Positions 1 to 4,122 of a stretch of 4,122 nt of DNA are shown one piece after another (the stretch's first letter is position 1; every line of letters starts with the position of its first letter). This DNA comes from a virus. Lineage: Duplodnaviria > Heunggongvirae > Uroviricota > Caudoviricetes. The stretch lies in IMG/VR virus record IMGVR_UViG_2734482004_000012, one strand, 5' to 3'. The translations under genes and the position numbers were made by a program. The notes under the pieces are model-generated. The model was given only the letters and a program-made list of their open reading frames with translations, did not search any database and was not told the origin of the DNA.

Positions 1-151
1 GTATTAAGCATGGATCATTAAGCCTGTCTCTGATAGGCTCATTCTGCTTTTGCGCAAAGCAGTGGGCCTGAGGTTTGCTTGTGATCCGGACGCATGAGCA
101 GATGGCTGGTGGGTGCCCCTAACACCCACCAGCCGCCCATTTACCACAAAT

Positions 152-175
152 AAAAAAGCCTTCACTGCGGAAGGC
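152..175 (-). terminator. Putative rho-independent terminator after the 65-aa ORF
   Basis: Plus-strand gccttc (158-163) and gaaggc (170-175) form a 6-bp stem with loop actgcg. On the minus strand the hairpin is followed by UUUUUU (plus A-run 152-157). It overlaps the stop codon of ORF 162-359. Short stem, so moderate confidence. Confidence 0.4.
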
Positions 176-359
176 GTCTGTAACAACCGAACTGATAGTC
201 TGCCAGACCCGCCATAACCAGCTGAGTCAGTATTAACTGGCAGCGTTCGCGTGAAAGGTAAGTATTCTGCGCTATCTCCCCGACTGTCGCCGGGTCGGTA
301 ACGCTTAATTCATTAAACACCACTCTGGCGGTTTCTGTCATATCCTGCTGTTTTAGCAT
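162..359 (-). CDS. Hypothetical small protein (65 aa), possible winged-helix/HTH DNA-binding protein
   Basis: ATG at 357-359 preceded by AAGGA about 6 nt upstream on the minus strand. The segment TVGEIAQNTYLSRERCQLILTQLVMAGL resembles an HTH recognition unit. It lies between two terminator-like hairpins. No family recognised from memory. Confidence 0.45.
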   Translation of the reverse strand: MLKQQDMTETARVVFNELSVTDPATVGEIAQNTYLSRERCQLILTQLVMAGLADYQFGCYRRLPQ

Positions 360-480
360 GTCTTTTCCTTTTCCGGTTAACGTGACACACCAATAACTCT
401 TGTCGAAAAAGCCAGCAAGCTGAAAGACAGGTATTCACCGCCACCAGCGCGTTTACTGTACTGACGCGATTTCAGTCATA

Positions 481-501
481 AAAAACCCGCCAGGCGGCGG
501 G
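481..501 (-). terminator. tR'-like intrinsic terminator downstream of the late promoter
   Basis: Plus 486-491 cccgcc pairs with 496-501 ggcggg (loop aggc). On the minus strand this GC hairpin is followed by UUUUU (plus A-run 481-485). It sits about 60 nt downstream of the predicted PR' start, where a Q-dependent terminator is expected. Confidence 0.5.
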
Positions 502-538: not shown

Positions 539-578
539 ATCGTTAGAGCAAATTTACCACAGATTCGGGAAAAATCAA
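539..578 (-). promoter_or_regulatory. Late promoter PR'-like with sigma-dependent pause element (probable Q engagement site)
   Basis: Minus strand reads TTGATT (plus 573-578), 16-nt spacer, TAAATT (plus 551-556), TGCTCT, then AACGATGGG (plus 536-544). From memory this matches lambda PR' (GGGTAAATTTGACTCAACGATGGG) in the -10 hexamer, the spacing and the AACGAT pause-inducing element. Predicted +1 near plus 544. Starts about 40 nt after the Q stop codon (TAG at 584-586). Confidence 0.5.
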
Positions 579-583
579 CAACA

Positions 584-1403
584 CTATCGCGTTACCCTCT
601 TTAACTGCCGCTCCGCCCATGCCTCTTCAATGTCAAACCGAACCACCAACGTATCGTAAAAGCGTTTCACTGATTTTTTCCACGTATCAAGCGTGATAGC
701 ACTCGTCACTTTGCATATGGCATTAAATGCCTCCGTTGATGGCAGCCTTTCACAGCCACGACCACCACAACGCTGGCAATCTCTGATAACAGGCATACCA
801 CGTTTTACCGACTCTTCACGATGAATGGCGACACCACGCCCACGGCAATCCTTACAGGCGGTGGAAACCTCACCCTTTCCGCCACACTCCGGACAGGCAA
901 CTTTTACCACCTCCCTGACTTTTTTCCATTCTTCCCAGTAAGACGGATACACGCCTTTTGTGCACTTTGCCCACACTGGTGGCTTACCATCCGGATACTG
1001 GATCTTGTTTGTAAAAACCTCGCTTTCAATAAATTTTTTTCCGTGACAGCAAGGGCACTGTTTTTTGCTCGCCGCGCTACGGGCATAATCTTCAAACGCA
1101 TACGAAGCCAATGCGCATCACTACCGGTTTTATTTCTGCCGGAAGTTTTCTCAACGCCGCCACACGATCGCACCGACTGAGTGCATAATCTGCCAGTAAT
1201 TCTGTTGCCCGCGCCCTGTCATTCATACTGATGCCCATTTTCCCCAGGAACGCAGAAAACCCCATCTCAGCCCGATTCTGTGTCATGCCCTGCGCGGCCA
1301 TCACATCAGTGATACTCAGCGCATCTTTTGACGTTGAGGCCGATGCATCGGTCAGGCCAGGGGATTTTGGGGAGTAGTATTTCGGTAAATCTTCCAGTTT
1401 CAT
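584..1403 (-). pseudogene. Q: Antitermination protein Q (lambda Q family), interrupted by an apparent frameshift near 1095-1111
   Basis: ORF 1092-1403 (MKLEDLPKYYSPKSPGLTD...DVMAAQGM...) matches the lambda Q N-terminus as I recall it (MRLESVAKFHSPKSP...DVMAAMGM...). ORF 584-1111 (LASYAFEDYARSAA...CxxC motifs...LDTWKKSVKRFYDTLVV...RVTR) matches the lambda Q C-terminus (LATFAYADYCRSAA...LTQPTWSRTVKPLYDALVV...AVTR). The two parts are in frames offset by one nucleotide and overlap by about 20 nt. The apparent start codon of the C-part is TTG and is really an internal Leu. The ATG at 1401-1403 overlaps the rusA stop (ATGA). Confidence 0.8.
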
Positions 1404-1774
1404 TTTTTGACCTGCTCTTCATGCATTATGGGGTAAATCTTCACCCCCATACGTCCACCAGATACTGGCTGACCACGAACGATATTGATTTCATCAAACT
1501 GCTCATCGTCCATTAACACTCCCGCATGCGTCAGCGCATCCAGCGGTGCTTTCAGGATATTGTCCAGGTCGCGACGACGCTTATCCGGTGGCTCTGCAAT
1601 CACCTTTATCGCCAGCCTTCCGGACAGGCTTAATTTCAGCCGCTGCTGGCGAACAATAAGCGCCACAGCCCGGCGATAACGCTTTCCCTCCTCCGAGATA
1701 AAATATGTGCTGCCACGGCGTCGCCAGTAAGTGTTCACCGTCGGCGGGTAAGGTAAAACCAAATCTATGAGCAT
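1400..1774 (-). CDS. rusA: Crossover junction endodeoxyribonuclease RusA (Holliday junction resolvase)
   Basis: 124-aa product with LPYPPTVNTYWRRRG, PDKRRRDLDNILKA, DALTHAGVLMDDEQ and GGR motifs, matching the RusA family including the acidic catalytic residues. Good SD (GAGGTG) 4 nt before the ATG at 1772-1774. Stop overlaps the Q start. Confidence 0.9.
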   Translation of the reverse strand: MLIDLVLPYPPTVNTYWRRRGSTYFISEEGKRYRRAVALIVRQQRLKLSLSGRLAIKVIAEPPDKRRRDLDNILKAPLDALTHAGVLMDDEQFDEINIVRGQPVSGGRMGVKIYPIMHEEQVKK

Positions 1775-1786
1775 CAGTCACCTCTT

Positions 1787-2807
1787 TTACCCAAGCACGC
1801 CAGTTGCAAAGGCGTGATCAAGAAAACGAAAAATTAAATCAACCTGAGAACCATGCTTTTCTTCGAACGCCAGAGGATCCGCATGAAGCTCGTTGTGATG
1901 CTCCCGACACAGCGGTAGCGTGAAAATATCGTGAGATTTTGTCCCCATTCCGCCCTGACCATGACCAATCAGGTGATGGGGATCGTCGGCTGGCTTACCA
2001 CAACACGCACACGGCTGTGTCTTCACCCAGCGTGTGTATTTCTCGTTAACCCNNNNNNNNNNGAGACTCAGGATCAACGGCAATGCTGACCACCGTCTCT
2101 TCCTGTGGCGGGTTTTGCTGGTGGGCGTGAGGCAGCGGCGCAAGATTTTTTGTGCGCTGCTTCAGTATGCTGGTGGCGGTCTGCTCTCCCGGTACGATGT
2201 CGCTTTCACGGTACATTGAGCGGATTTTTTCCGCACGCAACCCCAGCGAACGACGTAATACCGCTTCCGGTAGCGCGTCCGCCACCTGATTGCGGACCGC
2301 ACACCAGGATAATTCAGCCAGCGATAATTCCCGTTCCTGCGAGCCATTCATTGCATGGAGTATGACGTCAATCATCCATGCTGACAGGTTTTGATGAGCA
2401 AGTTGCTCGAGTGATTCGGATGTCTGGTCACGCAGCTGGTTGTCGCAGTGCCAGCACAACACCATTGCGCCGGTACCATAACGGTGAATGACGGTTTCGC
2501 TGTGATGATAATCGCCGTGTGGCCACTGGCAGGATTTAATATGGCGCAACAGCCAGTCAGACAATGCACCAGCACCACCAGCAGCACGAATCACCCGTGC
2601 GTTACTGAAAAACGGCAGCAATGTTTTGTCTTCCACTAGCGGCTGGCGAACGGCAGGAACAACCCCGGACGGCAGATTACGCATGCTTTTCGGTTCCGGC
2701 TCCACCAGTACCCGGGTATTGTGGAATACCGGCATGGATTCACGGCCCGGCTTAACGATCACCAGCCCGAGTTCCGGTACCAGAACAGGTCGAAGTAATA
2801 CTCGCAC
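1787..2807 (-). CDS. DUF968-family phage protein with C-terminal HNH-like Cys/His motif (YdfU-like), interrupted by a 10-N gap
   Basis: ORF 2046-2807 (N-terminal about 250 aa) and ORF 1787-2143 (C-terminal, ...NEKYTRWVKTQPCACCGKPADDPHHLIGHGQGGMGTKSHDIFTLPLCREHHNELH...) are separated only by the N-run at 2053-2062 and are most simply one gene of about 340 codons. GTG start at 2805-2807 preceded by GGAGG (plus 2812-2816). The frame offset across the gap is uninformative because gap length is arbitrary. Family assignment is from memory of Qin-type prophage proteins. Confidence 0.65.
2053..2062. other. Assembly gap (run of 10 N)
   Basis: Ten consecutive n characters in the sequence. Confidence 1.
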
Positions 2808-2808
2808 G

Positions 2809-3087
2809 TTACCTCCAGATGCGTTGCTGGAATGTGCGGGACGGACGCGGTGATCGTTCGGAGTAAGGAAGCCTGACGGAGATTATCCAGTGACGATAAT
2901 CGAGGCTGAGGGCTTTCTTAATCTCGTATCCGTGTCTGCGGTAGCACTGAATTAGCCACTCGGCCTGTTCTTCAGTGCATGGGGGATGCTGGAACCAGTC
3001 AGATTTGAAAGTGCGGGAACGCCGCCCGTGCCTGCTGGCAAAGACGGCAGAATCATCAGAATTGTGTAATTTGGTATCGTGCGCCAT
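2809..3087 (-). CDS. Small hypothetical phage protein (92 aa), possibly Rem-like
   Basis: First ATG (3085-3087) downstream of the terminator at 3160-3186. Product MAHDTKLHNSDD...EEQAEWLIQCYRRHGYEIKKAL... looks protein-like. Stop TAA (2809-2811) lies inside the SD of the next gene, suggesting translational coupling. Its own SD is weak. Position between hok and the DUF968 gene matches where rem sits in the E. coli K-12 Qin prophage as I recall it. Confidence 0.45.
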   Translation of the reverse strand: MAHDTKLHNSDDSAVFASRHGRRSRTFKSDWFQHPPCTEEQAEWLIQCYRRHGYEIKKALSLDYRHWIISVRLPYSERSPRPSRTFQQRIWR

Positions 3088-3254: not shown

Positions 3255-3410
3255 TTACTCCTCAGGTTCGTAAACTGTGAAGACAGCGACCTCCGTCTGG
3301 CCGGTTCGGATTCGTACCTCGCAGAGGTCTTTCCTCGTTACCAGTGCCGTCACTATGACGGTTAAACAGATGACGATCAGGGCGATTAACATCGCCTTTT
3401 GCTGCTTCAT
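3255..3410 (-). CDS. hokD: Hok/Gef family type I toxin (51 aa), HokD/RelF-like
   Basis: Product MKQQKAMLIALIVICLTVIVTALVTRKDLCEVRIRTGQTEVAVFTVYEPEE has the single transmembrane helix and the conserved RKDLCEV...TGQTEVAVF core of the Hok/Gef family. It is near-identical to HokD/RelF as I remember it. SD AAGGAG 9 nt upstream of the ATG at 3408-3410. Confidence 0.85.
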   Translation of the reverse strand: MKQQKAMLIALIVICLTVIVTALVTRKDLCEVRIRTGQTEVAVFTVYEPEE

Positions 3411-3467
3411 AGCCTGCTTCTCCTTGCCTTTCGGCACGTAAGAGGCTAACCTAGATTTGCCGTTCAT
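3255..3467 (-). CDS. Mok-like in-frame leader ORF (70 aa) overlapping hok
   Basis: ATG at 3465-3467 with GAGG 8 nt upstream. The N-terminal extension MNGKSRLASYVPKGKEKQA is in frame with Hok. It resembles the MokC extension (...KVKEKRAMKQHKAM...) as I recall it. In hok-family loci, Mok translation is what allows Hok translation. Confidence 0.5.
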   Translation of the reverse strand: MNGKSRLASYVPKGKEKQAMKQQKAMLIALIVICLTVIVTALVTRKDLCEVRIRTGQTEVAVFTVYEPEE

Positions 3468-3567
3468 AGATTGAGCCTCAGATTAATGTTAAGCGTCTTG
3501 CAGGACGCGTAATATTAACTGGGGCTTTTCTCTATCTGCCTTTGGTGTTCATGCCTGAGGCAGATAG

Positions 3568-3582
3568 CCTCAAGCACCCGCA
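3568..3582 (-). promoter_or_regulatory. 5' leader (tac-like) element of the hok mRNA, complementary to 3190-3205
   Basis: See the paired element at 3190-3205. It is followed in the transcript by a 9-bp hairpin (plus 3532-3540 ctatctgcc / 3559-3567 ggcagatag). Confidence 0.45.
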
Positions 3583-3916: not shown

Positions 3917-4122
3917 TGCTAGCAGCCTTCTGTGTGAATTCTCAGGGAGCAGGTCGGCATAGCATCACGTTGAGGCTCTTACCCTACTTGTTGACACCAA
4001 CCCTAACTCCACAGACTGATTCATAAATTAGTAATCTGCGTGTTTCGCACTTTTCAGAAATGCTTTCATATTTTCATTAGGTCGCTCAATTTCGAAGTTA
4101 CTTCCATATAACTCTTGTAATT

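Follow-up and report, generated by a model that had tools for sequence, protein, structure and literature searches.

The closest relative of known structure to the antiterminator gene considered here is Q of bacteriophage lambda (Q-lambda; PDB 7UBM/7UBN, 4MO1; Pfam PF03589). Residues 1-44 of this protein fold, on NusA binding, into a torus which narrows the RNA-exit channel of RNA polymerase (RNAP), and a protein without residues 1-38 no longer antiterminates but still binds DNA (PMC9388147). Residues 61-113 and 153-207 make up a four-helix body, whose helix-turn-helix recognises the Q-binding element; a zinc-ribbon arm, residues 114-152, touches both sigma region 4 and the zinc-binding domain of RNAP (PMC9388147). 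A second described relative is QuuQ (YdfT) of E. coli K-12, the putative Q of its cryptic prophage Qin. Its neighbourhood is hokD, the DUF968 gene ydfU and then Q, with no rusA between ydfU and ydfT, and most late genes of Qin have been lost.

The stretch of DNA analysed as a whole, referred to below as the window (4,122 nt), resembles both systems. All its recognisable genes lie on the minus strand, and its whole length can be aligned to a prophage of E. coli UTI89, which is integrated next to ompW and in which a complete lambda-like head and tail region lies further downstream. In the direction of transcription, the window as far as the end of Q contains the following features.

4028-4122, minus strand: 3' end of a hypothetical gene (UTI89 annotation).
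3255-3579, minus strand: hokD/sok type I toxin-antitoxin locus (Rfam sok, RF01794, at 3405-3579, 113 bits).
2809-3087, minus strand: open reading frame (ORF) of 92 aa.
1787-2807, minus strand: DUF968 (ydfU-like) gene, interrupted by a gap of 10 N.
1400-1774, minus strand: rusA, Holliday-junction resolvase, intact (PF05866, E 2.6e-17; annotated in UTI89).
1092-1403, minus strand: 5' part of Q, 103 aa, made of 98 native codons plus GFVCV, with TGA at 1092-1094 (ORF list, translation and Pfam).
1109-1111, minus strand: site of a 2-nt deletion, TA/AT of CATTATGG being lost to leave CATTGG (the single gap relative to UTI89).
584-1111, minus strand: 3' part of Q, 175 codons corresponding to intact codons 99-273, out of frame with the 5' part.

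The Hok ORF lies within 3255-3467, the annotated hokD being 51 codons from MKQQKAML, and the whole locus is identical to that of UTI89. The rusA gene shows no mismatch to UTI89 either, and its stop codon overlaps the Q start (ATGA). Altogether, the window differs from UTI89 by one substitution (2301), the N gap and one 2-nt gap. The substitution, TGG to TGT, changes Trp to Cys in the DUF968 protein (...LSWCAVRNQ...). The N gap, which the first-pass annotation of this DNA had pointed out near Q, lies at 2053-2062. UTI89 and N-free contigs carrying the same Q allele, such as L007, have 36 nt in its place; thus, the DUF968 gene is probably intact.

The gene at 584-1403 on the minus strand encodes a lambda-type Q antiterminator in two open pieces which lie in different frames, as seen from the ORF list and its translation. 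Such a split by a frameshift, with both parts still recognisable, had been noticed in the first-pass annotation, and Pfam now places PF03589 ('Antitermination protein Q') on each half separately, with E values of 7.7e-16 for the N-terminal and 1.1e-27 for the C-terminal fragment. The scores are 58.4 and 96.4 bits, respectively, against 166 bits for the intact UTI89 allele and a cut-off of 26.7. Alignment to an intact Q, suggested earlier as the way to locate the indel, gave one 2-nt gap: the window reads ATGCGCAT--TGGCTTCG where UTI89 reads ATGCGCATTATGGCTTCG, with two bases gone at codon 99. This site, 1109-1111, falls inside the interval 1095-1111 within which the junction had been expected. 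The upstream frame, which opens with the native ATG at 1403, runs through ...VVMRI into GFVCV and a stop, while a new TTG at 1111-1109 occupies the exact place of the former Met99 ATG. The 3' part retains four CxxC motifs, the region aligning to the helix-turn-helix of Q-lambda and the C-terminal helix, and ends with the stop codon at 584-586. When the 2 nt are restored, one frame of 273 codons plus stop (822 nt) results, in agreement with the length of about 273 codons predicted for the repaired gene. No uninterrupted frame covers all the Q domains in the window, the frame being split at codon 99, and the window therefore holds a pseudogene of the PF03589 family rather than a functional member. 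With high confidence, we regard the Q gene of this Qin/lambda-like E. coli prophage as having become a pseudogene through a genuine, lineage-specific 2-nt deletion at codon 99.

The assignment of the gene to the lambda type, made earlier without database searches, is borne out by the intact allele. Among proteins in the PDB its best solved relative is Q-lambda (7ubm_Q; phmmer E 2.3e-38, BLASTP E 1e-37), to which it is 31% identical and colinear over the torus segment, the body and the zinc-ribbon CxxC pairs: residues 1-113 correspond to Q-lambda 1-113, and 182-273 to Q-lambda 116-207. In the window, residues 1-98 of the N-terminal fragment are colinear with Q-lambda 1-98, and the 3' piece aligns to residues 116-207. 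What Q-lambda lacks is a Cys-rich insert of 68 residues (intact residues 114-181) at the start of the zinc-ribbon arm, so that four CxxC motifs (CPCCHGKK, CPECGGKG, CKDCRGRG and CQRCGGRG) are present in the intact Q compared with two in Q-lambda. The same long architecture with four CxxC motifs is found in QuuQ, which is 40% identical over the full length. Thus, 'lambda-type Q' is right, and the gene is more precisely, as judged from its architecture, a QuuQ-like long variant. The situation in Qin is the reverse of that described here: its Q is uninterrupted (250 aa), whereas in the present case the prophage looks nearly complete and Q is broken. More closely related genes occur in phages mEp460, Evi and vB_EcoS-640R1 and in the Stx2a-converting phage Stx2_EH1910, with about 92-93% nucleotide identity over the whole gene; these are annotated as antitermination protein Q, often beside rusA, and are uninterrupted.

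The part of the window at 587-1060 (minus strand), with its four CxxC motifs, has a DnaJ-like arrangement, possibly with two zinc centres, as opposed to the single zinc ribbon of Q-lambda, and a DnaJ_CXXCXGXG match to the 3' part of Q is listed by Pfam below the cut-off. We know of no study of the contacts which an arm of this size makes with sigma region 4 and with the zinc-binding domain of RNAP.

A separate problem is whether the deletion belongs to the bacterium or to the assembly, a question which the first-pass annotation had left between the two. If it arose during sequencing or in the assembly of a draft, the true genome would carry the intact 273-codon Q. The 10-N scaffold gap near Q in the window speaks for such an error, and so does the result of a megablast search with 80 nt across the junction, which found the deletion in none of 5426 complete RefSeq E. 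coli genomes (2035 records matched, all at 97.6% identity or less, as expected from a 2-nt gap). An exact-pattern scan of JGI metagenome contigs for a 34-nt junction string likewise gave no match, in a collection which we assume to be probably mostly environmental. UTI89 and about 275 other complete E. coli genomes have the intact gene of 822 nt and 273 codons, with an identity of at least 99%; the best 30 complete-genome matches all span 822 nt and are annotated as a coding sequence for 'antitermination protein'.

It was the absence from RefSeq that first prompted the reading of the deletion as an artefact, and look-ups of the exact protein overturned it. The 103-aa product, which can arise only from the Q frameshift, is deposited as ELG55928.1 from E. 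coli KTE118, occurs on 27 contigs in all (NCBI, ENA and Logan) and is indexed in 58 blocks of the protein collection. Checking the junction string in the DNA itself confirmed the deletion in the ENA gut-metagenome scaffolds ERZ28662779 (L002), ERZ28659576 (L003/L012) and ERZ28641164 (L008), in the Logan assemblies ERR10177566 (L007) and SRR29636582 (L011), and in OZ040181.1, the 5.0-Mb GenBank chromosome of GCA_964049065.1 (L010). L002, L003 and L007 equal the window at every overlapping non-N base, and L008 does so except for one substitution and an N gap of its own; L010, L011 and L012 are mutually identical over 12-20 kb. All four carriers which cover position 2301 (L002, L003, L007 and L008) have the window base there, which makes this substitution a linked lineage marker.

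Thus, no fewer than seven independent assemblies, which stem from different projects and assemblers and include N-free contigs and a 5.0-Mb chromosome, share an identical deletion, and it is linked to the same substitution at 2301. The context of the deletion is not a homopolymer, as had been remarked before, nor is it a simple repeat, and the intact 273-aa protein is correctly assembled on at least 1000 other contigs, which indicates that short-read assemblers are not systematically wrong at this motif. Against these observations an assembly error appears very improbable. Since the same lesion recurs in independent sequencing projects on one consistent haplotype, we conclude from the assembled sequences that a minor, near-clonal E. 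coli lineage carries the deletion as a genuine allele. The assemblies behind this conclusion are drafts, metagenomes, Logan assemblies and GenBank-only records, and the absence of the allele from the complete RefSeq genomes is what marks the lineage as minor.

Internal runs of N in metagenome scaffolds can imitate such lesions. L009, considered as a second independent Q disruption, was rejected, as it has only an N gap (1381-1459), which produces a spurious 'split Q', and its junction is intact; a short rusA in L008 proved likewise to be due to an N gap (about 910-920). Fragment clusters in protein databases mix artefacts of this kind with true frameshift alleles.

Residue 98/99, where the frame breaks, lies within the first segment of the body (Q-lambda 61-113). 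The 103-aa fragment keeps the torus segment and loses the zinc ribbon and arm, the helix-turn-helix and the C-terminal helix, so that nothing would be left to load the torus onto RNAP at the promoter. The remainder of 175 codons is devoid of the torus segment and of part of the four-helix body. Neither piece should antiterminate, as far as this can be read from the Q-lambda structure. Some translation of the C-terminal piece is possible, as the new TTG is preceded by GGTAGTGAT, whose pairing with the 3' tail of 16S rRNA is predicted at -9.3 kcal/mol (-7.3 for the native Q start and -11.5 for rusA).

One may ask, then, whether the split gene could still give an active Q, either by +1 slippage at GUU-UGA (1097-1092) or by two polypeptides assembling in trans. 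The N-terminal frame ends with GTT TGA A, and a +1 shift there would enter the 3' frame at EDYARS..., at the cost only of replacing MASYAF by GFVCV. There is, however, no stimulator resembling a Shine-Dalgarno (SD) sequence upstream of the stop, unlike in prfB, and the P-site tRNA-Val would, as reasoned from the codons, mispair at the first position on UUU. For a two-piece Q, the 3' frame does begin with TTG at the former Met99, behind the weak SD-like GGTAGTGAT, but the break runs through the first segment of the body, residues 61-113 of Q-lambda. Moreover, the split is confined to one near-clonal haplotype, whereas close and distant homologues are uninterrupted. Retained activity of either kind therefore has, in our estimation, only a marginal chance of being real. 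The lack of conservation of the split led us to reject a programmed frameshift: the best 30 complete-genome matches, the phage homologues and QuuQ of K-12 are all single frames. If the lineage nevertheless kept a Q rescued by low-level +1 slippage, or assembled in trans from the 103-aa piece and the TTG-initiated 175-aa piece, the late-gene switch would be attenuated and not dead; alternatively, the free N-terminal fragment might bind the RNA-exit channel of RNAP. We consider these to be long shots.

The consequences of an inactive Q depend on what lies downstream of it, where the window continues as follows.

539-578, minus strand: PR'-like late promoter with sigma-dependent pause element (-35 TTGATT at 578-573, -10 TAAATT at 556-551, AACGAT at 544-539, then GGG).
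476-501, minus strand: tR'-like intrinsic terminator, CCCGCC-GCCT-GGCGGG then TTTTTT (terminator scan).
162-359, minus strand: ORF of 65 aa, the first gene after tR' (ORF list; a hypothetical protein in UTI89).
148-175, minus strand: second intrinsic terminator, GCCTTC-CGCAGT-GAAGGC then TTTTTT, ahead of the DNA-methyltransferase gene.
11-9, minus strand: ATG opening the first codons of the DNA-methyltransferase gene (UTI89 annotation mapped via the alignment).

In an alignment to the lambda Q-S intergenic region, the segment GGTAAATTTG..AACGATGGG is conserved with lambda PR' and its pause element. TAAATT, AACGAT and GGG are common to both, but the spacer between -35 and -10 (16 nt in the window), which is the site of the Q-binding element in lambda, is not conserved. 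A generic sigma-70 promoter scan did not list this promoter (8 of 12 matches), which was identified by the lambda alignment. The tR'-like terminator lies about 65 nt downstream of the pause element and is followed by the 65-aa ORF, in the position where lambda has its orf-64. Judged by resemblance, Q thus lies just upstream of a late promoter with pause element and terminator, and the lambda layout of Q, PR', tR' and an orf-64-like ORF is repeated; this region, with the promoter, the pause element and the terminators, shows no difference from UTI89. The product of the 65-aa ORF (162-359) has a weak TrmB-like winged-helix match (E 0.0044, below the cut-off).

The proposal in the first-pass annotation that late expression would lack its antiterminator finds a fitting downstream layout here, and the effect on transcription is what we would predict from it. 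RNAP starting from the intact PR'-like promoter would not be modified by Q and would stop at tR' (476-501); with no active Q, a PR' transcript is expected to reach no further than about 65 nt past the pause element. In L010 the genes beyond this point are the methyltransferase, three tRNAs, holin, lysozyme, an Rz-like gene, Nu1 and gpA, which are called full length. From the lesion and this layout we infer loss of antitermination and of late transcription: the methyltransferase, the three tRNAs, the lysis cassette and the head and tail genes would be silent, and the lytic cycle of the prophage would not be completed. The three tRNA genes (L010 12492-12741; anticodons CAT, TCG and TCT) separate the methyltransferase gene from the lysis cassette. 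As part of the presumed Q-dependent late transcript, they too would fall silent with the loss of Q. The tRNA with anticodon CAT is called Met by ARAGORN and Ile in RefSeq UTI89.

The lesion had earlier been likened to the typical state of a cryptic prophage, and this part of the interpretation does not hold. Four substitutions and the Q deletion are the only differences between the carrier L010 and UTI89 in the 20.3 kb surrounding the lesion, and L010 has open frames for its repressor, cro, lysis and terminase genes. Given so few changes and open genes elsewhere in the prophage, sequence comparison suggests that Q was knocked out recently in an element which otherwise looks complete, and which is not an old cryptic remnant. 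The CI-like repressor of L010 (2193-2831, minus strand) is an open ORF of 212 aa with an N-terminal helix-turn-helix and an S24 part. A 112-aa repressor consisting of the S24 part (UTI89 1394327-1394665, L010 and L012), considered as a second lesion, was dismissed: the DNA is identical to that of L011, and, with the 212-aa ORF open, the short form reflects a discrepancy in start-codon calling.

The Q lesion is an ordinary frameshift pseudogene, in a well-known gene family and a well-known kind of element, and already in public records; the finding matters little beyond annotation. For annotation, the frameshift should be kept and marked as a pseudogene, not 'corrected', and the 2-nt deletion could be used to recognise the lineage. 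Tools for prophage prediction are likely to call the element 'intact', though lysis and particle formation are probably impossible. In this minor, apparently UTI89-like lineage of E. coli, the lambdoid prophage by ompW is probably locked in via the loss of Q.
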